Shown: positions 2,466-62,418 of the stretch, in pieces
Position numbering within the stretch: position 1 is the first letter of the stretch
How the letters are laid out: each line of letters starts with the position of its first letter
Program-made: the position numbers and the translations under genes
The notes under the pieces: model-generated
What the model was told of the DNA's origin: nothing
Database searches by the model: none
Seen by the model: only the letters and a program-made list of their open reading frames with translations
DNA from: Planctomycetota bacterium
Lineage (GTDB): Bacteria > Planctomycetota > SZUA-567 > H5-PLA8
Direction: 5' to 3'
Assembly: GCA_027493525.1 (NCBI GenBank)
Contig: JAOSKN010000002.1
Span: 1,271,326 to 1,335,325 of the forward strand
DNA length: 64,000 nt

Positions 2466-2634
2466 CTAGTGTCCTGTAAGCGAAATCCGTTGCGCGTTTT
2501 GGGGCGCTTTTGACCGTGCTCTTCGTTGCGCTTCGAGCGTCGTATCTTCTCGATACGGCTATTCTTCGCGCGCCTCGATCACGGCCAAAATCCCTCCCAA
2601 ACCGCATCAACGTATTTCACTTACAGAACACTAG
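2466..2634. mobile_element. MITE-like element (same family, imperfect inverted ends)
   Basis: CTAGTGTCCTGTAAGCGAAAT at the left end and ATTTCACTTACAGAACACTAG at the right. The core carries an 11-bp sub-repeat pair, TTTTGACCGTG and CACGGCCAAAA. Confidence 0.6.
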
Positions 2635-9631: not shown

Positions 9632-9907
9632 GGGGGTAATATGGTGGAGCGCTGCGCGCGGATTTTTTCAGCACCGTCCCTGCCCCTCCTCGGGGAGGAG
9701 GGGAGACGGCATAGGGCGATGGAACCTAATTGAAGTAAGGCCGCTTAGCAACCCGTTGAAAAAGGGAGCGGGCCATTAAACGGCGCTTTTGCCCAACCCT
9801 TCGTTGCTCCCTCGTCACAGAGCTTCTCTGGATATGCTCCTCGGTCGCGCCTCGGTCAGGACAAAAATCGCTCGTTTACCGACCGCACCCCCATTTTCAA
9901 CGGGCTG

Positions 9908-10075
9908 CTAGTGTCCTGTAAGAGAAATCCATTGCGCATTTTGGGGTGCTTTTGGCCGTGCTCTTCGTTGCGCTCCGATCAGCGTATCTTCTTGATACGA
10001 TGACTCTTCGCGCGCCTCGATCACGGTCAAAATCCCTCCCAAACCGCATCAACGAATTTCTCTTACAGGACACTA
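9908..10075. mobile_element. MITE-like element, 168 bp, with 21-bp inverted ends CTAGTGTCCTGTAAGAGAAAT
   Basis: The inverted ends at 9908-9928 and 10055-10075 match perfectly. Its core matches repeats near 2490, 9780, 30760 and 62050. Confidence 0.7.
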
Positions 10076-10480
10076 GCGGTCGAGCTTGAGGTCGCGGAGG
10101 CGCCAGCGCCCGTTCTTGGCGGTCTGGTACTGGACGCTGCCCGAATAGACTTTGCCGATGACGTAGCGGTCGGCGCCGCCGAAGAGGCTGTCTACTTCGT
10201 TGACGGCGAAATGCTTGGTGTCGCCGGGCTTGAAGGGCGCTTTTTCGTCTTCCAATTCCACGATATTCACGCTCACCACGTAATGCGGATCGGGGGTCAC
10301 GGCGGTGACGACGTAATCGCCGCGGCCGATCGGTTCGATGTTCAGGAGCTTGGCCTTGAACGGCACGGAGTGCTCCTCAAGGAGCGGGAAGCTGGTGACG
10401 CTCTGCTTGACCTGCATGCGCTTCCCGCCGCCGCAGCCAGCGAGGAGAAGGGCGGCGAGGAGCATCGGGGCGGCGCGCAT
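10073..10480 (-). CDS. lipoprotein, hypothetical
   Basis: The mature part begins MRAAPMLLAALLLAGC, which includes a lipobox. The C-terminal part of the ORF looks like a real protein. Confidence 0.6.
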   Translation of the reverse strand: MRAAPMLLAALLLAGCGGGKRMQVKQSVTSFPLLEEHSVPFKAKLLNIEPIGRGDYVVTAVTPDPHYVVSVNIVELEDEKAPFKPGDTKHFAVNEVDSLFGGADRYVIGKVYSGSVQYQTAKNGRWRLRDLKLDR

Positions 10481-12935: not shown

Positions 12936-13335
12936 TCGGTGTGGCTCGTTTGCTGTTTTCATTTTGCTGTTTGTTTGAGATTTGGTTCTTGTCGTTTGCC
13001 GTTTTGAGTCCTGAAGGGTCGAATGAGAATAGCCCAGCGATTCATCGCTGGGAAAATGGTTGGGTTCGCTGGGCGCGGGAAGCATCAAATCAAAAGAACC
13101 AAAACCCAAACAAATTTCAAACGGCAAGAACAAAATTCCAAACAATCGGCGAACAGATCGGCGCTCGAACTCATGCCGCCCCTGCGGGGCTCAAACGAGT
13201 CAAGGGCCGAGTACCAGGGGCTTACGCCCTGGCTATAGCATGGCGGCCCCGCGGGCCTGAATGGCGGTATGGGAATTCATGCCGCGATTGTTAAGTTAAG
13301 GAAATGTGACTGCAACAGCCGGTGACCGGCCCCGG

Positions 13336-20188: not shown

Positions 20189-21661
20189 GTAACCGTTCAG
20201 TTCCCTACCGCTGCAAGGAATGCCGGAGCCTTTGCGCCGGTGCGGTGAGCAGCCAAGGCCCTGCGCAGATAGTCAAGGATGGGACGCTTTTGCAAACGCA
20301 AGGTCTGCACGGTGGTCAAGATCCGTTCGGTGAAACGGCAGCCTGCGGTACTGTGATTGCCGAAGCTCCCTTTGCGCCACAGCACCGCCGGACGCAACAT
20401 CCGTTCGGCGTGGTTGTTGGTCGGTTCGATGCCTTCGACGGCCGCGAAGGTCCACAGCGCGTCGTAGACTTTCAGCACGCGTCTGCAAAAGCGCTTGGTT
20501 TTGGGGTCCGCGCCCCTGCTTCCGAGCCGGAGCGTTCTCTGGAAACGCAGGCGTATCGGTTGCAACCGCACGTGTAGCGCGGCACGGTCGCAACGCCGGT
20601 CTTTGAAATCCTTCCAGGCCGCAAAGACCGCTCGGGCGGTCTTGCGGCCCGCTCGGCCGAGCGGTTGTGTCGCGGATCCCAGGTCGATCAACTTCTGAAA
20701 ATCGCGCTTGAGGTGCGCCCAGCAAATTTGCCGCTGCCGCGGCGGCAGGTGCGCGTAGGCGCCCCAGCGGTCGGAGCCGAGGATGCCGCAACACGCCCCC
20801 AGCAACGCCTTCAGGCCGTCCTTACCCCGGTGGGCGTGAATTTGAAAGGCTGCGACGCTCCGCGTGGCTGCCACCCACAGCCAACACAGCTTGCCACCCT
20901 TCGCCCAGCCGGTTTCATCCACGTTTTTGAAAGCCGCCCCACGCACGGCCGCCAGCGCCTGCGCGTGAGGCCCTTCCAGCGCGCCGCTCATCTCGTGTTC
21001 GAGCTTGATCACCGTGCCCAGGGATAGCGGGACCCCAAAGACGGTCTCGGCGAGTTCCTGGACGTTGCGCTTGCTGGCGTGGCCACGCCCACTCAGATAC
21101 GACAACGCCGCCGCCAGGTTGGGACCCAGCGCATGGGCTTGAATCTCCGGCGGAATCTCCGCGCGGGTGCGGCAGCCGCAGCACGGACAGGTGCGTGCGT
21201 GCCCCTGGTATTCGGTGATTTCGGCCGGCTGCGGCGGCAACTCCGCGACTTGATGCCAAGTCGGAGGCGGATCGTGTGGCCCTGGCCGCTTAGACAAGGG
21301 GGCTTGGCATTCCGCACATACGTGCGGCACGTAATGGACCACGTGCGTGACCCGTTCGGGCGGCAAACGTACACGGTGATGGCCCGGATGTCCGGGTTGT
21401 CCGCCGGGTTTGCGGCCGCTCGGCTTCTTGGCGGCTGGAGGCTTCTGCCAGGGCGCATCGGACGACGGTGGTTTGGAAGAGTTCGAGGAATTCTGGTTCA
21501 AGCGCTCGGAAAGCCGCTCCAGCTTGGCTTCCAATTCTTCGATCCGCGCCAGGAGCACCGCGCAATTCGGACAAGCCGGGTTGGGTTTAAGCTCGCGCAC
21601 ACATACAGTATCGGATGGCGTGACGTAAAAAATGAGCCTTCATAGGGGACTGAACGGTTAC
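20189..21661. mobile_element. IS66-family insertion sequence with a single transposase gene, about 20-bp inverted ends, and 8-bp TSD CTTTTCTG
   Basis: Left inverted end is GTAACCGTTCAGTTCCCTAC; the right end reverse-complements to GTAACCGTTCAGTCCCCTATG. The direct repeat CTTTTCTG sits at 20181-20188 and 21662-21669. Confidence 0.8.
20197..21600 (-). CDS. IS66 family transposase
   Basis: The N-terminal CPNC zinc finger, leucine zipper and NSSNSSKPPSSD motif are characteristic of IS66 transposases (TnpC). The protein is 467 aa. Confidence 0.85.
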   Translation of the reverse strand: MRELKPNPACPNCAVLLARIEELEAKLERLSERLNQNSSNSSKPPSSDAPWQKPPAAKKPSGRKPGGQPGHPGHHRVRLPPERVTHVVHYVPHVCAECQAPLSKRPGPHDPPPTWHQVAELPPQPAEITEYQGHARTCPCCGCRTRAEIPPEIQAHALGPNLAAALSYLSGRGHASKRNVQELAETVFGVPLSLGTVIKLEHEMSGALEGPHAQALAAVRGAAFKNVDETGWAKGGKLCWLWVAATRSVAAFQIHAHRGKDGLKALLGACCGILGSDRWGAYAHLPPRQRQICWAHLKRDFQKLIDLGSATQPLGRAGRKTARAVFAAWKDFKDRRCDRAALHVRLQPIRLRFQRTLRLGSRGADPKTKRFCRRVLKVYDALWTFAAVEGIEPTNNHAERMLRPAVLWRKGSFGNHSTAGCRFTERILTTVQTLRLQKRPILDYLRRALAAHRTGAKAPAFLAAVGN

Positions 21662-29346: not shown

Positions 29347-29434
29347 TGGAGGAGGACAGAGGACTCGAACCCCACTCCCGAAGGAGCGATCCGTTTTCGA
29401 GACGGTCCCGGCACGCCTGTCCGGTTTATCCTCC
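29347..29434 (-). tRNA. tRNA-Ser(CGA)
   Basis: Manual cloverleaf: GGAGGAT/GTCCTCC acceptor stem, long variable arm, CCA encoded. Confidence 0.8.
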
Positions 29435-29446
29435 CGGTGCGGGCGC

Positions 29447-30022
29447 CTATCCGACGCCCTGCATCCGCTGGCCTAGTACGAACGGCGCCCAACGCGGCTC
29501 GTGATGGACGATTCGCGGCGGGAGCTGTTCGGGGCGCGCGGGCCGGCTGCGCAGCGCCATGCCCGCCGTCTCCGGCGTGCGGTCGCGCTTGCGCCGGTTG
29601 CACGGCACGCAGGCGGCGACGCAGTTGGCCCAGACTGAGCAGCCCCCCTGTGCGCGCGGCAGGACGTGGTCCACGGTCAGCTTGTGCGCCGGCAGATGCG
29701 CGCCGCAGTACTGGCACGTGTAGCCGTCCCGGCGGAGCACGTTGTACCGGGAGAACGCCGGCTTGCGCTCGGGCACGCGGTCGTAGAAGGTCAGCACGAT
29801 CACCTCGGGCGCGAGGAGGTCGCACGTCGCCGTGCGCACCCGCGGCGAATCGGGCGCGCAGGCCACGCGGGTCCAGGACGCGAAATCGTGCGTGGAGTAG
29901 TCCTCCAGCCGCACGGCGCGCGCGTGGCCGTCCACGAGCTTGCAGAGCGCGCGGAGCACCGACGTCACGTCGATCGGCGTCCAGTGCTTGTTGAGGACCA
30001 GCGTCGGCCGTTCCAGTACCAC
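29447..30022 (-). CDS. HNH endonuclease
   Basis: The HNH motif is present: YTCQYCGAHLPAHKLTVDHVLPRAQGG...NCVAACVPCNRRK. Confidence 0.8.
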   Translation of the reverse strand: MVLERPTLVLNKHWTPIDVTSVLRALCKLVDGHARAVRLEDYSTHDFASWTRVACAPDSPRVRTATCDLLAPEVIVLTFYDRVPERKPAFSRYNVLRRDGYTCQYCGAHLPAHKLTVDHVLPRAQGGCSVWANCVAACVPCNRRKRDRTPETAGMALRSRPARPEQLPPRIVHHEPRWAPFVLGQRMQGVG

Positions 30023-30044
30023 CAGCGTGTCCTTTCCGTTGCGT

Positions 30045-30118
30045 TGGCAAGGCGCCGAGGAGTCGAACCCCGCCGGGCGGTTTTGGAGACCGCTCAGGTC
30101 CCCGGACCATCGCGCCTT
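30045..30118 (-). tRNA. tRNA-Trp(CCA)
   Basis: Manual cloverleaf; anticodon loop CTCCAAA. Confidence 0.8.
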
Positions 30119-30138
30119 GTCGTATCCGCCTCTCGAAC

Positions 30139-30213
30139 TGGCTCGCCCGCCGGGAGTCGCACCCGGACCTCGACCTTCGCAAAGTCGTGTGCGGTCTGTT
30201 ACACCACGGGCGG
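30139..30213 (-). tRNA. tRNA-Arg(GCG) candidate, with C1xA72 mismatch
   Basis: A full cloverleaf with anticodon loop TTGCGAA. It is a paralog of the tRNA at 36302..36377. Confidence 0.55.
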
Positions 30214-30225
30214 ATTGGGCTCTCC

Positions 30226-30300
30226 TGGCGCCTCCGCGAGGACTCGAACCCCGATCGGCCGGTTAGAAGCCGGCTGCTCTGTCCCTTGAGCTACGAAGGC
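30226..30300 (-). tRNA. tRNA-Arg(TCT)
   Basis: Manual cloverleaf; anticodon loop CTTCTAA. Confidence 0.8.
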
Positions 30301-30309
30301 GCTGCGGAT

Positions 30310-30383
30310 TGGCGCTCCCGGGAGGATTTACACCCCCAACTCCCGGTTCGAAGCCGGGTATGATTCTGTTTCACCACGGGAGT
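30310..30383 (-). tRNA. tRNA-Arg(TCG) candidate, with A1xC72 mismatch
   Basis: Cloverleaf with anticodon loop CTTCGAA. Confidence 0.6.
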
Positions 30384-30422
30384 CCGAATTTCATGCTCAT
30401 TCTTCAACCTTAATTCCACATG

Positions 30423-30496
30423 ATGGTGTCCCGGGAGGGACTTGCCCCCCCAACTTCCTGACCCTGAATCGGGCGCCTCTGCTTGGGCTACCGGGA
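30423..30496 (-). tRNA. atypical tRNA-like gene (anticodon CAG, short variable arm, T-loop GGCAAGT, 3-bp D stem)
   Basis: The acceptor GTCCCGG/CCGGGAC pairs perfectly and CCA is encoded. The anticodon stem carries a C/A mismatch, and there is no long variable arm, so it is not a canonical tRNA-Leu. Confidence 0.4.
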
Positions 30497-30597
30497 CACA
30501 ACGCCTCGCCTCCATGCGGGGGCCGGAGAGCCGCGCGCCGGACGGCGCGCGGTTCTGCGAACTCCGCGTTCCCGCGCGCATGGCCTCGCGCGCAACA

Positions 30598-30683
30598 TGG
30601 TCGGGGCGGGGAGAGTCGAACTCCCATGGGCGAACCCGCCGGCCTCTCGAACCGGTGCGTATGCCTAGTTCCGCCACGTCCCG
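30598..30683 (-). tRNA. tRNA-Leu(GAG) (type II), with one acceptor mismatch
   Basis: 86 nt, with a long variable arm and A73. The anticodon loop is TCGAGAG. Confidence 0.6.
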
Positions 30684-30690
30684 AATGTCA

Positions 30691-30930
30691 TGGTGTCGCG
30701 GGCAGGACTTGCACCTGCACTAAGTACCGCGCCGCGAAAGTTCCTGACCCACTGCTGGAGCCTTTTGTCCCGGCTCTTCGTTGCGCCTTGGTCTCAGATC
30801 TTCGTCCCGATATGCTCCCTCGGCGCGCCTCGACCCGGGACAAAATGCCCGGCGCATTGGGCCAGCTACTTTCGCGGCGCGGTACCAAGCCGGGTTTGAG
30901 CCGGCCGCCTCTGCATTGGGCTACCGCGAC
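30691..30930 (-). pseudogene. tRNA-like gene (paralog of 30423..30496, anticodon CAA) split by a 162-bp insertion
   Basis: The 3' half at 30691-30723 carries the T-arm, CCGCGAC and CCA. The 5' half at 30886-30930 reads GTCGCGGTAGCCCAATGCAGAGGCGGCCGGCTCAAACCCGGC. The halves are separated by the element at 30724..30885. Confidence 0.5.
30724..30885. mobile_element. 162-bp MITE-like insertion with perfect 18-bp inverted ends GTACCGCGCCGCGAAAGT
   Basis: The inverted ends sit at 30724-30741 and 30868-30885. The core matches the roughly 105-bp unit (TTTTGNCCNGG ... CCGGGACAAAA) seen near 2490, 9780, 9940 and 62050. Confidence 0.65.
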
Positions 30931-30952
30931 ACGATTCAAGTTCCATGCAATG

Positions 30953-31036
30953 AGGAGCGCGGAGGAGTCGAACCCCATGCCTCGCGGCACGCGCGGTCTT
31001 CCAAACCGTCTCGAGCACCGGCTCGAATCACACTCC
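30953..31036 (-). tRNA. tRNA-Ser(GGA) (type II, CCA not encoded)
   Basis: GGAGTGT acceptor stem, anticodon loop TTGGAAG, and a long variable arm. Confidence 0.65.
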
Positions 31037-31065
31037 GGATCAAGTTTTCCTTTCACGTCTCAAAT

Positions 31066-31152
31066 TGGAGGAGGGCGGAGGACTTGAACCTCATGCCCGC
31101 AGGCACGCCCTGTGTAGCAGACAGGCCCGGAAACCCATCCGGGTCACCCTCC
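31066..31152 (-). tRNA. tRNA-Ser(GCT) (type II)
   Basis: 87 nt; anticodon loop CTGCTAC; CCA encoded. Confidence 0.75.
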
Positions 31153-31164
31153 GCACCTAGAAAA

Positions 31165-31253
31165 TGGTCGCCCCGGAGGGAGTCGAACCCTCACGTCCTA
31201 AACGGACACGAGCTTCTGAGGCTCGCGCGTCTTCCAGATTCCGCCACAGGGCG
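31165..31253 (-). tRNA. tRNA-Leu(CAG) (type II)
   Basis: 89 nt; anticodon loop CTCAGAA; A73; CCA encoded. Confidence 0.8.
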
Positions 31254-31346
31254 AAGGAATTGGGACCGCGGAGGCGGCGCGCTCCAGGGGTGGAGCCGCC
31301 TGGGAGAGGGCGCGCACCGCGCTCCGCAATCCGGTTCCTTATTCAG

Positions 31347-32654
31347 CTACAGGAGCTTGACCACACGGTCGGCCAAGCCCTTCTCACCCAACATCACGGT
31401 CAGGTTGGCCTTCTGCGTGACCTTCTCCAGGACCTCCAGCTCGCGCAGGCGCATCAGCGTCGGGTTGTGCTCCAGCACCTTCGCCGTGTTGGCCTGCATG
31501 CGCATGGCCGCGGTCTCCTCGCGGCGCGTGATCAGAGCCGCCTCGGCCGCCTTCTTGGCCTCGGTGACCTTGTTCAACAGGTCCTTCATCTCGCCCGGCA
31601 GGATCACGTCACGGATGCCGAGCGCGATCACTTCCAGGCCGAACGCCGTGGCGCGGTCCTTCAACTGCCCTTCCAGCTCGCGCGCCACTTCGTCCTTGGC
31701 CGCCAGCAGCGCATCGAGATCGCGCGTGCCGATCGCTGCCCGCAGGCTCAACTGCGCCTCGCGGTACAGCGCCTGGCGGTAGTCGTCGGTGACCGTCGCC
31801 GCCTTCACGGCGTCGGCCACGCGGAAGTTCACGACCGCGTTGAGGCGCAGCGTCACCTTGTCGGCGGTCATGATCTCCTGGCCCTGGATGTCCACGACCT
31901 GCTCGCGCAGGTCCACCGTGAACAGCCGCACCTGGCCCACGTCCTTCCAGAACGCGTGCTTTCCGGCGCCCAGCGTGGCCTGGTGCGCGCCGTCCTTGAA
32001 GAAGACGGCGGCGTGGCCCGGCTCGACCGCCAGCCACTCGAGCGCCTCCTGCGCGCCGGCGGCCTTCTGGATGGCCGCCAGTTCGCCGTGCTCGAAGCGT
32101 CCCTTGCCCGCGTCCACGACCTCGACCTTGACGTCGTGGTACTTGGTCGGGATCAGGTGCAGGCCGCGCCCGAGCACGCGCTCGAAGCGCCCGTCGCGCC
32201 AGACGAGCGCGCGCTCGCGGTCCTTCAGGTCCACGGCGCGGGCCTCGCCGTCGAAGGCGCCCGTGGCGAGCACTTCCGCCAGGTCGCGGTGCGCGAAGAC
32301 CGCGGCGCGCAGGTCCACGACGTCCACGCGGACGTCGCGGAAGACCGTCCAGAGGACGTAGCGGCCTGGCTTCAGGACGCGCTCCAGGCGCCCGTCGAGC
32401 CACACGATGCCGCGTTCGTGCGCCTTCAGCTCGACTACGCGGGCGTCCTTGCCCAGGCGGCCGCTCTTCACGATCACGTCCAACTGGGCGTGCTCGAACC
32501 AGGCCTCGCGCACGTTGACCTTCTCGACGCGGACCCGGAAGAACGGGTCGGCAAAGCGGTGCTTGCCCGGCTGCAGCAGCCCCTCGAACTGGCCCTCGCG
32601 GAAGAGCAGGCCGCGCTCGTGCGGCAGGATCTTGAACGTACGCATCAGCAGCAT
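31347..32654 (-). CDS. SPFH/band-7 (stomatin/slipin-like) domain protein
   Basis: The ORF is protein-like from MLLMRTFKILPHERG onward. The SPFH core is recognisable (VVNFRVADAVKAATVTDDYRQAL), followed by a coiled-coil C-terminus. Confidence 0.8.
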   Translation of the reverse strand: MLLMRTFKILPHERGLLFREGQFEGLLQPGKHRFADPFFRVRVEKVNVREAWFEHAQLDVIVKSGRLGKDARVVELKAHERGIVWLDGRLERVLKPGRYVLWTVFRDVRVDVVDLRAAVFAHRDLAEVLATGAFDGEARAVDLKDRERALVWRDGRFERVLGRGLHLIPTKYHDVKVEVVDAGKGRFEHGELAAIQKAAGAQEALEWLAVEPGHAAVFFKDGAHQATLGAGKHAFWKDVGQVRLFTVDLREQVVDIQGQEIMTADKVTLRLNAVVNFRVADAVKAATVTDDYRQALYREAQLSLRAAIGTRDLDALLAAKDEVARELEGQLKDRATAFGLEVIALGIRDVILPGEMKDLLNKVTEAKKAAEAALITRREETAAMRMQANTAKVLEHNPTLMRLRELEVLEKVTQKANLTVMLGEKGLADRVVKLL

Positions 32655-33050
32655 GCTGCACCTCGCCTTCTCGGGTGGCGGCCACAGGGCCGCCTTCAAC
32701 CCGCTGCCCTCTTGGTTCGTGCCCCGGTCGGGCCAGGGCAGAGCTTGTTCGCGACGCCGGCGGCGAAACGACCTTTGGGAGGCGGACCGCCGGTCCGCCA
32801 CACCTTCGGCACGGAGCACCGCTTGAGCCCCGCGCTACTCCCGGATTCGAGCCCCGGCTTGCGCGCGCGAACCCTACGGGCTTCACGCGCGCGCCCCGGA
32901 ACCGTCTCCCGGTTTGGCGCAGGACGGTATCCGCGCGCTTCAGGGCGCCGTCGCGTGCTGCCGAATTCCGAGCTGGAACGAGCCTCGAAATCCGGCGGGC
33001 CGAGCGCGACGACCGCCCCCCTCGGGCCTCACGGTTACGCTTTTGCAAGC

Positions 33051-33122
33051 GTGTTGGCGCAGGATTCGAACCTGCAACTCACGGATTAAAAATCCGCTGC
33101 TCTTCCCTTGAGCTAGCCATGG
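33051..33122 (-). tRNA. tRNA-Lys(TTT)-like; acceptor 5' strand poorly paired (possible pseudogene)
   Basis: The D-arm (TAGCTCAAGGGAAGAGC), anticodon loop (TTTTTAA) and T-arm (GCAGGTTCGAATCCTGC) are canonical, but only 4 bp of the acceptor stem pair. Confidence 0.5.
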
Positions 33123-33205
33123 TCGGATGGCGGGAGTCGAACCCGCGTTCCCCTTGCGAGGAACCAGTTCCAAGCTGGCGCGCCTTCCCCGGCGCGTCAT
33201 CCGTG
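33120..33205 (-). tRNA. atypical tRNA-like gene (Pro-TGG-like anticodon hairpin CTTGGAA, extended variable region)
   Basis: A T-arm (GCGGGTTCGACTCCCGC) and a CCA end are present. The acceptor has one mismatch and the structure is irregular. Confidence 0.35.
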
Positions 33206-33214
33206 GTGCGCGGC

Positions 33215-33287
33215 AAGCCGGGCGAGATTCGAACTCGCGTCCTCCGGGGCAACCGCCCCGGCGCTCTGCCACTGAGCTACCCGCCTC
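33215..33287 (-). tRNA. tRNA-like gene, identity undetermined (6-nt anticodon loop, acceptor mismatch)
   Basis: The D-arm (TAGCTCAGTGGCAGAGC) and T-arm (GCGAGTTCGAATCTCGC) are canonical. The anticodon hairpin CCGGGG CGGTTG CCCCGG is irregular. Confidence 0.4.
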
Positions 33288-33452
33288 CGCGCGCGACTGA
33301 CATTTCGCCTTCGTCAGATCCCATGTCCGGAACACGCGCGGGCGATCACGGTGTGAGCCCGCACGCGCCGCTGGCCCGGCGTCGGTCAGTATTCGGTTTT
33401 GTCATCGAACCACCCGGTCTCCTTGTTTTTCCCGGTCTGCGATACTGCCTCA

Positions 33453-33526
33453 TGGCGCCCGCTGGAGGAGTCGAGCCTCCGTCTCCACCGCGTCGAGGTG
33501 GCGCTCTCCCGTTGAGCTAAGCGGGC
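33453..33526 (-). tRNA. tRNA-Val(GAC)
   Basis: Perfect acceptor GCCCGCT/AGCGGGC; anticodon loop TCGACGC; CCA encoded. Confidence 0.75.
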
Positions 33527-33531
33527 CGAGC

Positions 33532-33605
33532 TGGTAGCCGCTGAAGGAGTCGAACCTTCGTCTCCAGCGTGTGAAGCTGGCGCCCTGCCCTTAGGCGAAG
33601 CGGCT
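33532..33605 (-). tRNA. tRNA-Val(CAC)
   Basis: Acceptor AGCCGCT/AGCGGCT; anticodon loop TTCACAC; CCA encoded. Confidence 0.75.
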
Positions 33606-33606
33606 A

Positions 33607-33692
33607 TGGGGGCCTCGACGGGATTTGAACCCGCACCACGCGAGCGAGCGGCCTTTGGGAAACGCGCTTCCCAGTCACGGCGGTTTGCGGCC
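33607..33692 (-). tRNA. tRNA-like element (T-arm + acceptor + CCA), probable pseudogene
   Basis: The 3' end reads GCGGGTTCAAATCCCGT CGAGGCC C CCA. The 5' partner GGCCGCA leaves 2 mismatches, and no clean anticodon arm is visible. Confidence 0.3.
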
Positions 33693-33845
33693 AGGTCCCG
33701 TACGGTTACCCGTACGGGCGTGACACGGTGCATCCTCAACCCTTGCCGCGCCCCACACCCGATCAGGCCCCACGGGCCTTCGCGATCGGTAGCAGGTCTC
33801 GCGTGCCCTGTTACGGGGCCGGTTCTACGTTTTCCGGCAGGCTGC

Positions 33846-34015
33846 CTTGTGAGCGCGTCCTAAAACGCCTCGCGATCGTCTTGGGGCGGCGGGCCGCGCG
33901 ATGCTTCGTTGGCCTGCTCGCCGTATGCTCGTTCCGATACGGCTTGCGCGGCCGCCTCGCCTCGCTTGCCCGGCGCTCCCAAGCCGCCTCGCGATCCGAT
34001 TTCAGGACGCACTCA
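33846..34015. repeat. about 165-bp dispersed repeat (copy 2 of 2)
   Basis: Matches 23826..23995. Confidence 0.7.
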
Positions 34016-34046
34016 TTGCCTCACGAGGCCCAGCGTTATTCGGTTT

Positions 34047-34122
34047 TGGTAGCGAGCCGTGGAATCGGACCACGCTTGCAGGCTTATGAGACCCGCCAGA
34101 CCCCCAGGCCTTGCCACTCGCT
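34047..34122 (-). tRNA. tRNA-Met(CAT)-like (elongator Met or Ile-lysidine type)
   Basis: Acceptor AGCGAGT/GCTCGCT; anticodon hairpin CGGGT CTCATAA GCCTG; T-loop TCCGATT; CCA encoded. Confidence 0.55.
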
Positions 34123-34181
34123 ATCGAACGCTTTTCCTCCTTTGCTCGGTCCTCAGTCCTCGGTGCTCCGTCCTGCCGTAA

Positions 34182-34265
34182 TGGTGGGGTCGTAAGGAAT
34201 CGAACCTCCCAGCCTCGCGGCGCAGGGGTTACGGCCCTGCCCTGATCCCACTCAGCAGCGACCCC
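34182..34265 (-). tRNA. tRNA-Tyr(GTA) (type II)
   Basis: Perfect acceptor GGGGTCG/CGACCCC; anticodon loop CCGTAAC; long variable arm; CCA encoded. Confidence 0.75.
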
Positions 34266-34352
34266 GATCCAAATACGGAATGTCGAATTCGGAATGCGGA
34301 ATAATGAAAGAATCCGCAGGCCATTTTCGTTTCATTCCGGAGCCTTAATTCA

Positions 34353-34430
34353 TGGTCGGGATGGAGGGATTCGAACCCCCGATCTCCTGGCCCCCAGCCA
34401 GGCGCGCTGGCCATGCTGCGCTACATCCCG
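34353..34430 (-). tRNA. tRNA-Pro(GGG)
   Basis: Acceptor CGGGATG/CATCCCG; anticodon loop CTGGGGG; CCA encoded. Confidence 0.8.
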
Positions 34431-34450
34431 ATGCGGCCCTCCTTCGAGTT

Positions 34451-34528
34451 TGGTCGGGGTGGCAGGATTCGAACCTGCGACCTCTGCAATCCGAATGCAG
34501 CGCGCTCGCCAAACTGCGCTACACCCCG
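34451..34528 (-). tRNA. tRNA-Pro(CGG)
   Basis: Acceptor CGGGGTG/CACCCCG; anticodon loop TTCGGAT; CCA encoded. Confidence 0.8.
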
Positions 34529-34631
34529 GGGAACGGCTGTGATCTGTAATCTGTAATCTGAGGCTCCACCTTTCATTCTGGTACCGACTCGTACCTTATT
34601 CACTGTTCACAGATCACAGACCACAGATCTC

Positions 34632-34707
34632 TTGGCGGGGCCCCCGGGAATCGAACCCGGTTCTCCTGCGCTTCAGGCAGGCGCAATGACCACACCTGCT
34701 CAAGCCC
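34632..34707 (-). tRNA. tRNA-Phe(GAA)
   Basis: Anticodon loop CTGAAGC; CCA encoded. Confidence 0.75.
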
Positions 34708-34709
34708 CA

Positions 34710-34786
34710 CTGGCGCCCGCGGCCGGAGTCGCACCGGCTTACTCCACCGTGACAAGGTGGCGGCTCCACTGTTTCGCCTTCGCGGG
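34710..34786 (-). tRNA. tRNA-Asp(GTC)
   Basis: Acceptor GCCCGCG/CGCGGGC; anticodon loop TTGTCAC; CCA encoded. Confidence 0.8.
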
Positions 34787-34803
34787 CCCTGCTCCTTTGC
34801 GTA

Positions 34804-34877
34804 TGGAGGCCGCGGAGGGCTTCGCACCCCCGTGGACGGCTTTGCAGGCCGCCGCCTTGCTCCTCGGCCACGCGGCC
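34804..34877 (-). tRNA. tRNA-Cys(GCA)
   Basis: Acceptor GGCCGCG/CGCGGCC; anticodon loop CTGCAAA; CCA encoded. Confidence 0.8.
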
Positions 34878-34892
34878 GAATCTCCGCCGGCA

Positions 34893-34967
34893 TGGGGTGA
34901 CTTGCGGGAGTTGAACCCGCTCTGCGAGCCTCACAAGCTCGCGTGCGCCCGGCACACTCAAGCCACC
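34893..34967 (-). tRNA. tRNA-His(GTG) with encoded G-1
   Basis: Anticodon loop TTGTGAG. An extra 5' G pairs with C73, which is a His identity element. Confidence 0.8.
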
Positions 34968-34977
34968 ATCCAAGTCC

Positions 34978-35051
34978 TGGTCGGACGGGGAGGAATCGAA
35001 CCTCCGCCGGCTGCTCATCAGACAGCCGTGCTCCCGTTACACCACCGTCCG
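34978..35051 (-). tRNA. tRNA-Ile(GAT)
   Basis: Acceptor CGGACGG/CCGTCCG; anticodon loop CTGATGA; CCA encoded. Confidence 0.8.
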
Positions 35052-35056
35052 CCCGT

Positions 35057-35611
35057 TCACTGCTTCTCGGCGCCCTGCGCCAGCCACTCTTCGCGCAGCA
35101 GGCCCATGACCAGCGTGTCCTGGTACCGGCCTTCGAAGTAGGCGTTCTGGCGCAGCACGCCTTCCTTGATAAAGCCGGCCTTCTCGTAGGCCCGGATCCC
35201 GCCGCGATTGCAGGCGAAGACGTGCAGGTAGATGCGGTTCAGGTTCAGCGTTTCGAACCCGTATCCGACGATCAACCGGGTCGCTTCGGTCCCGTAGCCT
35301 TTGTTCCATTCCTCTTTCGCACCGATGTAGATGCCGAACTCGGCGCGGCGGTCCTTTTCGAGCCCCGGGCGGAGCCCGGTTCCGCCGAGGAAACGGTCGT
35401 TCTCCTTCAAGGCGATCGCGAGGACGGTCTGGCGCTCGTCGACCAGGACCTTGTCCAGCCACTGCTCTTCGGCTTCCTTCGTCAGCGGCCGATGCCAGTT
35501 CAGTGTTCGCGCGACTTCGCCGTCGTTGAGGTACGTCAGGATCTGCGGCACGTCCTCCTTGCTCAGTGGCCGCAGGTAGATCCGCTCGCCGATCAGGAAT
35601 GCGTTGTGCAT
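35057..35611 (-). CDS. GNAT family N-acetyltransferase (RimJ/RimL-like)
   Basis: Begins MHNAFLIGERIYLRPLSKEDV. An acetyl-CoA-binding motif is present (RNAYFEGRYQDTLVMGLL). The gene is embedded in the tRNA array. Confidence 0.8.
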   Translation of the reverse strand: MHNAFLIGERIYLRPLSKEDVPQILTYLNDGEVARTLNWHRPLTKEAEEQWLDKVLVDERQTVLAIALKENDRFLGGTGLRPGLEKDRRAEFGIYIGAKEEWNKGYGTEATRLIVGYGFETLNLNRIYLHVFACNRGGIRAYEKAGFIKEGVLRQNAYFEGRYQDTLVMGLLREEWLAQGAEKQ

Positions 35612-35628
35612 GGCCCACTTTCCTTTCC

Positions 35629-35702
35629 TGGTTGGCCCGCGAGGATTCGAACCTCGGCCTGCGGAGCCAAAGTCCGCCGTCCTGCCTCTAGACGACGGGC
35701 CA
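35629..35702 (-). tRNA. tRNA-Gln(TTG)
   Basis: U1:A72; anticodon loop CTTTGGC; CCA encoded. Confidence 0.8.
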
Positions 35703-35709
35703 TTCGATC

Positions 35710-35785
35710 TGGCGTCCCCGGCGGGATTCGAACCCGCGTCGCCAGGCTGAGAACCTGGCATCCTCAACCGCTAGACGACAGGGAC
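35710..35785 (-). tRNA. tRNA-Glu(CTC)
   Basis: Anticodon loop TTCTCAG; CCA encoded. Confidence 0.8.
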
Positions 35786-35795
35786 ACTGCTGCAT

Positions 35796-35870
35796 TGGAA
35801 CGGCCGGCGGGAATCGAACCCGCCCTTCGACGTTGGAAGCGTCGCGTGCGCCCGCTCACACTTCGACCGC
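35796..35870 (-). tRNA. tRNA-Gly(TCC)
   Basis: Anticodon loop CTTCCAA; CCA encoded. Confidence 0.7.
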
Positions 35871-35910
35871 CTGCGCTTTGATCCTCCCAAGAACCTCGCA
35901 CCTGCCGTCT

Positions 35911-35984
35911 TGGCTGCGGGGCAAGGATTCGAACCTCGCTTTCCTGGTTCAGAGCCAGGCGTCCTGCCGCTAGACGACCCCGCA
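35911..35984 (-). tRNA. tRNA-Gln(CTG)
   Basis: U1:A72; anticodon loop CTCTGAA; CCA encoded. Confidence 0.8.
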
Positions 35985-35988
35985 ACGT

Positions 35989-36064
35989 TGGTGCGTCCGG
36001 TGGGGCTCGAACCCACACGCACCCGGGTAAGAACCGGGCTCTCTGCCACTCGAGTTCCAGACGC
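35989..36064 (-). tRNA. tRNA-Lys(CTT)
   Basis: Anticodon loop TTCTTAC; CCA encoded. Confidence 0.8.
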
Positions 36065-36074
36065 GACCTGTACG

Positions 36075-36147
36075 TGCCTCCGGGAGGATTCGAACCTCCA
36101 CCCCTCGGCTTAAAAGGCCGGTATGCTGCCGTTGACACCACGGAGGC
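36075..36147 (-). tRNA. tRNA-Lys(TTT) (CCA not encoded)
   Basis: Perfect acceptor GCCTCCG/CGGAGGC; anticodon loop CTTTTAA. Confidence 0.75.
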
Positions 36148-36202
36148 GCACGTTTGATTGCTTTTCGTTTCACGCTCGCCTCCAAGTCCCGCTCCTCCCG
36201 TT

Positions 36203-36276
36203 TGGCAGCCCCACGGGGATTTGAACCCCGACCTCCGGATTGAAACTCCGGCATCCTCCCCTTAGACGATGGAGCC
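36203..36276 (-). tRNA. tRNA-Glu(TTC)
   Basis: Anticodon loop GTTTCAA; CCA encoded. Confidence 0.75.
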
Positions 36277-36301
36277 GCTTTGCGTTTCATGCTCCCTGCA
36301 T

Positions 36302-36377
36302 TGGTGGAGCGGCCGGGACTCGCACCCGGAACTCGACCGTGCGAAAGTCGTGTGTTGCTGGTTAGCACCACCGCCCC
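36302..36377 (-). tRNA. tRNA-Ala(CGC) with G3:U70
   Basis: Acceptor GGGGCGG/CCGCTCC carries the G3:U70 Ala identity pair. Anticodon loop TTCGCAC. Confidence 0.7.
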
Positions 36378-36396
36378 ACGCTGCGTACGCCTCCTT

Positions 36397-36470
36397 TGGC
36401 TCCGGCGGGAGGATTCGAACCTCCGTCTCCTGATTAACAGTCAGGGATGTTGCCCTTACACCACACCGAA
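36397..36470 (-). tRNA. tRNA-Asn(GTT)
   Basis: Anticodon loop CTGTTAA; CCA encoded. Confidence 0.8.
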
Positions 36471-36476
36471 CCGCGT

Positions 36477-36550
36477 TGGTGGAGCGTGCGGGACTTGAAC
36501 CCGCATCCCGAGGCTGCCGGCCTCGCATCCTTCCGTTGAACGAACGCCCC
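36477..36550 (-). tRNA. tRNA-Ala(GGC) with G3:U70
   Basis: Acceptor GGGGCGT/ACGCTCC; anticodon loop CCGGCAG. Confidence 0.75.
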
Positions 36551-36567
36551 ACGGGTACTTCACAAGC

Positions 36568-36638
36568 TGGAGCCGCAGGCAGGAGTCGAACCCGCCAGGC
36601 CTCTTTACGAAAGAGGCGCGTGCCCGGCACACCGCGGC
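36568..36638 (-). tRNA. tRNA-Thr(CGT)
   Basis: Anticodon loop TTCGTAA; short D arm; CCA encoded. Confidence 0.7.
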
Positions 36639-36649
36639 AGAGCACGAAC

Positions 36650-36723
36650 TGGAGCCGCCCGAGGGAATCGACCCCCCCTGCTCGCCACCAGGGAGCCGTG
36701 CGAACCATCGGCGCCGGAGCGGC
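36650..36723 (-). tRNA. tRNA-Thr(GGT)
   Basis: Anticodon loop CTGGTGG; CCA encoded. Confidence 0.65.
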
Positions 36724-36733
36724 CCGTCGAAAC

Positions 36734-36806
36734 TGGAGCGGGGGCGGGAATCGAACCCGCGTCTCGAGCTCGGCATGCTCGCGCTCTCCCGTTGAGCTAC
36801 ACCCGC
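36734..36806 (-). tRNA. tRNA-Gly(GCC)
   Basis: D-arm TAGCTCAACGGGAGAGC; anticodon loop ATGCCGA; CCA encoded. Confidence 0.75.
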
Positions 36807-62015: not shown

Positions 62016-62418
62016 ATCGCCGCCTAAGTGGCCTTTCGGTGCGCGTTCAAGAATCTGCTTGGCCCTTTTGACCGTGCTCTTCGTCGTTCGTTCGTTGCAG
62101 ATGTTCTCCGAATATGCTCCTCGCTCACTCCTCGATCACGGTCAAAATGGCCGGCGCATATTCCTTGAATTCGCACCGCAAGGCCGCTTAGCCGCGGCGA
62201 CGTATGAGACTCGCTTTGCCCACCGATAATCGGACGTTCCACTCCGACGCGCCTTGGCCAAGCGGCCCGCGCGTTTTCCGCAACCTTAGCGACCTTCAAG
62301 ACTTGAAGCGTCAAGCGGCGCCCGCTGCGTCATTGGCATGTGGTTCGCCTGGAATCTCCGCGCACGATGTCCGGAACCGGTATCGGTGCGCATTCGCACT
62401 TTGAAAAGGAGACCGAAC

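Follow-up and report, generated by a model that had tools for sequence, protein, structure and literature searches.

A MITE inside a tRNA-Leu(CAA)-type gene of a Planctomycetota genome, and the structured core that it shares with elements of other phyla

The usual definition of a MITE rests on its ends, the interior being regarded as dispensable. Genes, RNA genes included, are known to tolerate Rickettsia palindromic elements within them. For these elements, and for Correia, ERIC and RUP elements, we know of no report of a core that crosses phyla or of a copy in the variable loop of a tRNA. Within the PIF/Harbinger-IS5 superfamily, insertion at C-TNA-G that duplicates 3 bp has been documented (PMC4482050). 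REP units are species-specific, 20-40 bp long and linked to a RAYT gene, with GTAG or CGTC heads and no target duplications (PMC3733652). The superfamily described below reverses the MITE norm, in that its interior is constant across ~12 phyla and its arms drift or are exchanged. We came to it from one copy in a stretch of 64,000 nucleotides of a Planctomycetota genome; this whole stretch is called the window throughout.

The element at 30724-30885 and its host tRNA gene

The features of the focal element and of its host gene are the following.

30724-30885, minus strand (the strand that folds better, transcribed together with the tRNA): focal MITE, 162 bp, delimited by the limits of homology to four metagenome copies and by the hairpin fold
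30724-30741, plus strand: left terminal inverted repeat GTACCGCGCCGCGAAAGT, with an imperfect extension to 30755
30868-30885, minus strand: right terminal inverted repeat, perfect complement of the left one
30763-30773, plus strand: P1 arm TTTTGTCCCGG, pairing with 30835-30845
30835-30845, plus strand: other P1 arm, CCGGGACAAAA
30750-30857, minus strand: conserved structured core (P1, internal loop, P2, purine-rich loop, P3 hairpin), from covariance model R1 and covariation
30776-30782, minus strand: invariant loop strand, CTTCGTT on the plus strand and AACGAAG on the folded strand, from (nearly) invariant alignment columns
30827-30832, minus strand: invariant loop strand, GCCTCG on the plus strand and CGAGGC on the folded strand, from (nearly) invariant alignment columns
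30721-30723, no strand: TAA flank, reading TTA on the strand of the tRNA; first copy of the putative target-site duplication, within C-TNA-G
30886-30888, no strand: CAA flank, reading TTG on the strand of the tRNA; second copy of the putative target-site duplication, differing from the first at one base
30691-30930, minus strand: host tRNA-Leu(CAA)-type gene, 5' part 30886-30930 and 3' part 30691-30723 including the encoded CCA, from ARAGORN, the fold and the alignment with a second genome, L148

The element is hairpin over all of its 162 bp and has no coding capacity. Its terminal repeats are perfect over 18 of 18 bp and continue imperfectly to 32 nt, at 88% identity. GTACCGCGCCGCGAAAGT was found at two sites in the window (30724-30741 on the plus strand, 30868-30885 on the minus strand) and nowhere else at up to three mismatches, the chance expectation for the window with three mismatches allowed being 0.21. 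The first-pass annotation had described a 162-bp element with perfect 18-bp inverted ends and an 11-bp inner inverted pair, inserted into a tRNA-like gene, and the analysis bore out all three points: the repeats stand at both ends and nowhere else in the window, the inner pair lies at 30763-30773 and 30835-30845, and the interrupted gene is a tRNA gene with same-end copies of its insert elsewhere.

Indeed, ARAGORN called a tRNA-Leu(caa) solely after deletion of 30724-30885. Read on the minus strand from 30930 to 30691, the gene presents its acceptor stem, its D arm, the anticodon arm GCCGG-CUCAAAC-CCGGC, the insert, the T arm and ACCA, in that order. The insert occupies the variable loop, between the anticodon arm and the T arm, at the site C-TTA-G (variable loop context CCGGC-TTA-GT). 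The surrounding array is dense, lies on the minus strand (29347-36806) and comprises ~38 tRNA genes, of which ARAGORN called 31 and Rfam supplied several more; embedded in it is a slipin gene, 100% identical to a protein from a Planctomycetota MAG.

A second Planctomycetota genome (L148, GCA_026692735.1) was found to carry a syntenic array of 30 tRNAs, likewise around a slipin gene. Just past that gene lies a MITE-free homologue, a tRNA-Leu(CAA) at L148:11240-11325, which aligned end to end with the host gene once the insert was left out. The two have identical anticodon arms, and their D loops and odd UGCRAxU T loops are closely similar. Since the homologue aligns over its full length without the insert, the 162 nt are an addition to the host tRNA lineage. 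The pre-insertion state was not exactly recovered: the L148 tRNA has an ordinary 16-nt variable arm, and the host without the MITE has 5 nt.

Folding the tRNA together with its insert (246 nt) gave a minimum-free-energy structure of -145.9 kcal/mol (z = -10) that is a cloverleaf with the element as its variable arm. As the element forms a single long hairpin and occupies the place where class II tRNAs have their extra arm, a cloverleaf is still possible for the precursor. In the predicted fold, the tRNA precursor can keep its cloverleaf and bear a 164-nt extra arm. The tRNA array is redundant, and a hairpin in the variable loop is structurally tolerable.

This position, which is exactly that of a class II extra arm, and the preserved cloverleaf are also what one would quote for a non-mobile origin, as a lineage-specific giant variable arm or intron of the tRNA, or as a one-off local palindromic rearrangement. 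Yet the homologous tRNA of L148 carries an ordinary arm, the core is present in intergenic copies within the window and in many phyla, and the same element stands at four unrelated loci. As for an intron, 162 nt are too few for group I, and the insert lies outside the anticodon loop. Group I and bulge-helix-bulge introns were both rejected on the variable-loop position, on junctions flush with the helix and on Rfam, a search of which at E <= 10 around the focal copy returned nothing meaningful and no intron match. The non-mobile reading is thus largely refuted, and we find it hardly credible.

The four unrelated loci came from a search of public metagenomes with the 18-mer. It returned 27 loci, mostly chance or coding matches, among which one soil metagenome contributed five matches representing four independent copies (L120, L140, L143, with which L136 coincides, and L129, which is truncated). 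The first-pass annotation had proposed that a single local rearrangement would be the better explanation if no further copies shared these ends; four were found. They are the same ~161-bp element with the same ends at unrelated sites, and in the alignment of same-end copies identity spans GTACC to GGTAC precisely, with unrelated flanks on either side. Two of these sisters are flanked by TCA/TCA and one by AAA/TCA. The focal flanks are not identical (TAA vs CAA, two of three bases the same), and we infer that the focal target was C-TNA-G with a 3-bp duplication. Same-end copies at unrelated loci, TCA/TCA flanks and a homologous tRNA free of the MITE together establish that the focal element is a real MITE; its putative target duplication is of the T(N)A kind seen in IS5/PIF-Harbinger elements.

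Other copies in the window and in other genomes

Five more copies were found in the window.

2466-2634, minus strand: copy whose ends are of the GTGTCCTGTAAG type, flanked by TA within CTAG; R1 score 70 bits
9908-10076, minus strand: copy sharing its end type with 2466-2634, flanked by TA within CTAG; R1 score 74.7 bits
9746-9910, minus strand: copy with different arms (TAGCAACCCGTTGAAAA...), adjoining the 9908 copy; R1 score 80.9 bits
62021-62194, minus strand: copy with a third arm type (CTAAGTGGCCTTTCGGTGCG...); R1 score 87.8 bits
33850-34015 (approximate), minus strand: divergent sixth copy, lying between tRNA genes of the array; R1 score 17.5 bits, E = 0.015 (weak)

With the covariance model, the five strong copies of the window scored 70-88 bits, the focal core reaching 87.3 bits (E = 4e-22). 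A degenerate core pattern, CTTTTGNCC..CTTCG..CCTCG..AAAA, matched the same five, always on the plus strand (2507-2590, 9786-9867, 9949-10032, 30762-30845 and 62065-62147), where none is expected by chance. The divergent copy at 33850-34015 forms a long hairpin (z = -8.5) with 16-nt outer arms and retains CGAGGC...GAGCAUA...AACGAAG. Incidentally, the copy at 62021-62194 starts a few bases past the stop codon of a sigma-54 activator gene.

What the first-pass annotation had said of these copies fared unevenly. The 15-bp ends that it gave to two MITEs are present (CTAGTGTCCTGTAAG at 2466/2634 and at 9908/10076). The copies near 9780 and 62050, which it took to be without outer ends, proved to have inverted arms of their own and of different sequence, namely, 9746-9766/9890-9910 (21 nt, 90%) and 62021-62051/62164-62194 (31 nt, 84%). 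Its claim of a core shared between elements with different ends not only stood but extended well beyond the window, to at least 116 loci in ~12 phyla with lineage-specific arms.

This count was obtained with the core pattern on one genome per species. Part of one arm is fixed in the pattern by which the loci were found, and by our own estimate ~4 of the at least 116 are chance matches, L071 and probably L049 looking like such. Among the matches listed, and judging by record titles, the carriers belong to Planctomycetota, Verrucomicrobiota, Ca. Eremiobacterota, Bacteroidota, Elusimicrobiota and Chloroflexota (Limnocylindria), and further to Acidobacteriota, Desulfobacterota, Bdellovibrionota, Pseudomonadota, Campylobacterota and Bacillota. 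One of the loci, L047, belongs to Nitratidesulfovibrio oxamicus NCIMB 9442. Some carrier genomes are multi-copy, and within such a genome the whole hairpin of 145-185 bp is conserved; between lineages the arms differ and the core persists. The core itself exists in two versions, a short one of ~80-86 nt, which is the window type, and a long one of ~98-103 nt in which the inner hairpin is placed differently. The UUUUG/CAAAA part of P1 is absent from the metagenome sisters of the focal copy, from the sixth window copy and from a copy at another locus, L146, all of which keep CGAGGC...AACGAAG. Indeed, both invariant loop strands, AACGAAG and CGAGGC, were retained in copies found without the core pattern. 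Copies that lack UUUUG/CAAAA and still carry CGAGGC...AACGAAG indicate that the family is broader than the search pattern.

Searches of plasmid and phage collections with three different family members gave no match, and IMG/VR gave two matches only. At the gathering threshold, Rfam 15 matched none of the window copies and nothing in 18 diverse loci. In the literature searched, we found no description of it, and a review of prokaryotic MITEs from 2024 says nothing of tRNA or of families that span phyla. The core is, apparently, uncatalogued.

Structure and strand asymmetry of the core

Covariation was evaluated on 21 diverse short-type cores, taken on the reverse-complement strand and aligned to a hand-drawn structure. 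Paired cells amounted to 79.9%, as compared with 62.8% after shuffling, and 22 of the 29 pairs showed compensatory changes. The covariation score was 0.414, against 0.135 in shuffles (none of 500 reached the observed value) and 0.055-0.092 in slid controls. It should be kept in mind that the arms of a DNA palindrome can stay complementary through processes other than RNA selection.

The structure is an irregular helix of ~85-100 nt, made up of P1, an internal loop with 5'-CGAGGC opposite 5'-AACGAAG, P2, a loop containing GAGCAU and a variable P3 hairpin. The two strands of the internal loop are unpaired and invariant, and they lie between stems that covary freely. One conserved pair in the GAGCAU-containing loop is G.U in 15 of the 21 sequences, and in many lineages P2 consists of GAGC-type repeats that can pair solely as tandem G.A/A.G.

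The two strands do not fold equally well. In 37 of 38 families, stability was greater for the strand complementary to the search pattern, by 13 kcal/mol on average. The pattern fixed CC on one arm, and part of the excess of C.A is therefore an ascertainment artefact. Two tests avoid this artefact: in the inner segment, which the pattern does not constrain, the same strand was the more stable in 31 of 38 families (p = 1.6e-5), and it was so in all five of the copies detected by means other than the pattern. Purifying selection on specific unpaired nucleotides, together with a strand-specific fold, shows that the core is not inert cargo. Being optimised on one strand alone, it would act as a single-stranded nucleic acid, and most likely it is a selected single-strand structural module, made of RNA or of single-stranded DNA. 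Both can accommodate G.T and sheared G.A pairs.

The evidence from the orientation of the copies is mixed. The folding strand is the minus strand in all six window copies, that is, the transcribed strand of the tRNA array, and the copies are also co-oriented at four other two-copy loci. Over 104 loci, orientation showed no correlation with GC skew; with respect to neighbouring genes it was weakly biased (42:24, on crude ORF calls). Four of the six window copies, all intergenic, have their folding strand antisense to the flanking genes. Inside tRNA arrays the folding strand is in the tRNA sense for three of three copies, namely, the focal one, that at 33850-34015 and that at L146:12824-12928, which lies directly upstream of a tRNA-Asp that it adjoins, and is near RtcB. 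The general association with tRNA genes is low, 3-4 of ~120 elements lying within 400 nt of one.

In our judgement, the core comes near to an even chance of acting as RNA in read-through transcripts, for instance as a protein-binding or a processing/stability element. Action as single-stranded DNA in transposition seems rather unlikely, and a set of double-stranded protein-binding sites unlikely; these gradings are rough, and the three readings subdivide or compete with one another. A wider proposal, which we regard as speculative and rather doubtful as a whole, is that the core is an undescribed and widespread structured RNA, working in one orientation only, which MITEs with IS5/PIF-like ends have spread between phyla and which Planctomycete arrays express within tRNA precursors. 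On this proposal, the gene that holds the focal copy would not be dead, but either an RNA with a natural tRNA scaffold or a working tRNA with a 164-nt arm.

A related possibility, to be entertained tentatively and on the unlikely side, is that the core is a functional non-coding RNA in its own right, a module for protein binding or for processing, conceivably even a ribozyme, for which MITEs are the vehicles, and that the copies in tRNA arrays are expressed and stabilised by their tRNA context as a natural "tRNA scaffold". This possibility partly overlaps our best explanation. It would account for invariant unpaired nucleotides beside freely covarying stems, for the strand-specific fold with its conserved G.U and tandem G.A steps, for the tRNA sense of the three array copies and for the cloverleaf retained in the predicted fold. 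However, the four intergenic copies of the window are antisense to their neighbours, three out of three in the same sense corresponds to p = 1/8, G.T and sheared G.A pairs are stable in single-stranded DNA too, and the core has no likeness to any Rfam family or known ribozyme core. In a comparison by eye with consensus sequences, none of the hammerhead, hairpin, twister, pistol, k-turn, 11-nt receptor, sarcin-ricin loop, SRP or Y RNA motifs fits; for the k-turn, C30-G92 is an invariant Watson-Crick pair, and the register of a C-helix is unpaired. Two other identities were discarded. An integron attC would show the boxes RYYYAAC ... GTTRRRY (R''/L'', L'/R'), which are absent by inspection, and in the core sequence is strongly conserved, not structure alone. 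A coding core was suggested by an ATG conserved in a fixed frame in some copies, which is absent from 2466-2634 and from the Eremiobacterota family.

The core might instead be a pair of double-stranded DNA sites, that is, asymmetric subterminal binding sites for a transposase or a host factor, the remains of a parent insertion sequence whose inverted repeats were very long and imperfect, P3 being the deletion junction. It is true that P3 varies more than any other part and is not alike in the short and long versions, and that many copies have, on the folding strand, GGAG before P3 and UAA/UGA after it, which fits a lost ORF. Against this, P3 covaries (pairs 53-68, 54-67 and 55-66), no half-cores separated by a gene were found, and a G.U/G.A bias on one strand is not expected of double-stranded sites. 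We consider such an origin quite unlikely and retain a selected single-strand module as the best account of the core.

Transposition and relation to known systems

Target-site duplications were evaluated in three multi-copy families, in which they are real. In the Planctomycetota family, 13 of 14 copies have identical flanks (TAA in five, TTA in five, TTG in two and TAT in one); in the Bacteroidota family 8 of 12 do, with 3 bp of varied sequence and no TNA preference; in the Eremiobacterota family 8 of 10 do, with TA within CTAG. The copies of the window with 15-bp ends likewise have the target context C-TA-G...C-TA-G. Many family ends share the motif G-N2-3-CCTGT, which the ends of Tourist and PIF, GGCCTTGT and GGGCCTGT, resemble. 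The first-pass annotation had raised the possibility of two transposases that recognise one passenger. Because so many ends have in common this G-N2-3-CCTGT start and T(N)A duplications of 2-3 bp, the "different" ends look like variants within one transposase superfamily, and not like unrelated systems.

The MITE is probably mobilised in trans by an IS5/PIF-like DDE transposase, the family of which is suggested here by the target-site duplications and the end motif. A transposase encoded elsewhere would recognise the inverted ends and insert the element at a T(N)A site (C-TTA-G in this case), and the insertion would duplicate 2-3 bp in the manner of IS5/PIF-Harbinger-type DDE enzymes. On this scheme, the C-TTA-G target would, by chance, have been the variable loop, 5 nt long, of the host tRNA gene. 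An autonomous element with matching ends was not found in the window, in 149 loci (~1 Mb) or among the 18-mer matches, nor did a search for half-cores flanking a gene, for ends lacking a core and for pairs of ends spaced by 0.5-4 kb reveal one. No transposase recurred as a neighbour in the ~1 Mb of loci, where clustering of neighbouring ORFs yielded only spurious ORFs overlapping the repeats. The window encodes a single transposase, of the IS66 type, and the duplications made by IS66 elements are 8 bp long.

The asymmetry of the fold raises the alternative that an HUH/tyrosine transposase moves the element as single-stranded DNA, as with REPINs and RAYT or PATEs and IS200/IS605, the mismatched hairpin being the recognition structure. 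Besides the strand-specific fold, the co-orientation of six of six window copies and of the copies at four of four two-copy loci would agree with this, as would the CGAG/GAGC tetranucleotide repeats on the folding strand, which recall Rep-binding repeats. But the target-site duplications are clear, 2-3 bp long and of varying sequence, and to our knowledge Y1/HUH transposases of the IS200/IS605 or RAYT type make none such. Moreover, the long inverted repeats reach the termini, no RAYT or TnpA gene recurs nearby, and orientation was uncorrelated with GC skew over the 104 loci. This mode of movement appears to us very unlikely. On similar grounds, we rejected an identity with RAYT-mobilised REP/REPIN elements (target duplications are present, the inverted-repeat ends are 18-30 bp long without a conserved GTAG head, and there is no recurrent neighbour gene) and with IS200/IS605-derived palindrome-associated elements, the focal family consisting instead of single hairpins with terminal inverted repeats and target duplications.

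Among known systems, the closest are the Tourist-like MITEs of the IS5/PIF-Harbinger (PHIS) superfamily. Like them, the elements described here are small, non-coding and hairpin-forming, with terminal inverted repeats and T(N)A duplications of 2-3 bp, and the focal family prefers C-TNA-G. They differ in that the centre, and not the ends, is conserved, as a strand-specific structure found across ~12 phyla, and in that the related Bacteroidota family makes 3-bp duplications without a TNA preference. Correia (NEMIS), ERIC, RUP and Rickettsia palindromic elements resemble them as bacterial MITE-like hairpins co-transcribed with genes; in contrast, each of those is confined to a genus or family and is defined by its ends. 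REPINs, too, are long imperfect hairpins with many intergenic copies and are thought to act as single strands, whereas the present elements have target duplications, a core that crosses phyla and no RAYT nearby. The core points to a cis-acting function of a single strand, RNA or single-stranded DNA, that is listed neither in the MITE literature nor in Rfam; it is a candidate for a new class of structured RNA, or for a new requirement in IS5/PIF-type transposition.

For the tRNA gene itself, two comparisons apply. Archaeal non-canonical tRNA introns of the bulge-helix-bulge type are also intervening sequences outside the anticodon loop whose ends are joined by a helix; here, however, the host is a bacterium, the insert is a DNA transposon, the helix is flush and no such motif occurs at the junctions, and we know of no splicing endonuclease in bacteria. 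The long arm of class II tRNAs and the engineered "tRNA scaffolds" likewise place an extra helix between the anticodon and T arms and leave the cloverleaf unbroken, but the helix here is 164 nt long, replaces a 5-nt loop and is a transposon with copies elsewhere. In this respect, the locus is a natural experiment on the size of extra arm that a bacterial tRNA gene can carry.

The tRNA array and its counterparts

The interrupted tRNA-Leu(CAA)-type gene lies in a dense tRNA array that has syntenic counterparts in other Planctomycetota genomes.

29347-36806, minus strand: tRNA array of ~38 genes in 7.5 kb, with nearly all amino acids represented
31347-32819: slipin/SPFH gene embedded in the array

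The counterpart in L148, the Planctomycetota locus that carries a MITE-free homologue of the host tRNA, comprises 30 tRNAs and an HNH gene. The spacer that follows this tRNA-Leu(CAA), L148:11326-11430, contains a palindrome of a different kind (GATTGCGGATTGG...CCAATCCGCAATC). These genomes may commonly carry hairpin repeats in the spacers of their tRNA arrays.

Element copies in the window

A sixth, divergent copy of the element was found within the array itself.

33850-34015, minus strand: sixth, divergent element copy, in a 440-bp spacer of the array
20197-21600, minus strand: IS66-family transposase ORF (DDE_Tnp_IS66, E = 1e-30)

The sixth copy forms a long hairpin (z = -8.5) with outer arms of 16 nt and retains CGAGGC...GAGCAUA...AACGAAG, its match to the core model being weak (E = 0.015). 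All six window copies are co-oriented, as are both copies within each of the two-copy loci from other genomes (L027, L030, L060 and L083), an agreement expected about once in 500 under random orientation. Copy orientation bore no relation to GC skew across 104 loci, nor to the direction of flanking genes in the window.

At 9735-10076, two element copies adjoin each other, with one TA common to both, and the stretch immediately left of 9746, GGCCGCTTAG, resembles the right end of the element at 62021-62194. As read from the sequence, this layout suggests repeated insertion beside earlier copies, because the inferred target, C-T(N)A-G, would be recreated by each insertion.

The IS66-family ORF was the sole transposase seen in the window. 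IS66 elements generate 8-bp duplications, and for this reason the encoded enzyme is an unlikely partner of the MITEs. Incidentally, an Acido-Lenti-1 RNA motif was matched at 13007-13052 on the minus strand (49.6 bits, threshold 37), that is, in a Planctomycete, outside both phyla behind the motif's name.

Copies beside tRNA genes in other genomes

Family members also lie next to tRNA genes elsewhere.

L146:12796-12957, plus strand: element copy ending ≤3 nt from the 5' end of a tRNA-Asp gene, in the tRNA sense

The array around this copy is a smaller counterpart of the window array and adjoins an RtcB RNA-ligase gene. CGGTCC stands on either side of the copy, a possible 6-bp duplication that takes in the tRNA start. 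Two long-type cores, L028:68-167 and L039:606-706, directly abut the 3' end of a tRNA gene, with their folding strand antisense to the tRNA, and in L039 the ACCA of the tRNA forms part of the outer stem.

Unusual tRNA genes of the array

Several tRNAs of the array depart from the usual form. A variable loop of just 5 nt, a D loop without GG and a T loop reading UGCAAGU, with G at the conserved U55 position, characterise both the host gene at 30691-30930 and the Leu-anticodon tRNA at 30427-30497 (minus strand). The odd T loop is also present in the L148 homologue of the host tRNA, and these genes appear to represent a conserved non-canonical tRNA lineage. For 33212-33286 (minus strand), ARAGORN returned an undetermined tRNA type with a two-base 'anticodon' (gt), and Rfam a tRNA at 50 bits. 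As tRNA-Asp is otherwise missing from the window array, this gene possibly encodes an Asp(GUC) tRNA whose anticodon loop is unusual.

30953-31037 and 31069-31153, minus strand: pair of tRNA genes bearing serine anticodons GGA and GCU

With 43.4 and 42.6 bits (threshold 47), both matched the selenocysteine-tRNA model better than they did the general tRNA model. In combining a fit to the Sec-tRNA model with Ser anticodons, they resemble the 'allo-tRNAs' of PMC5389517.
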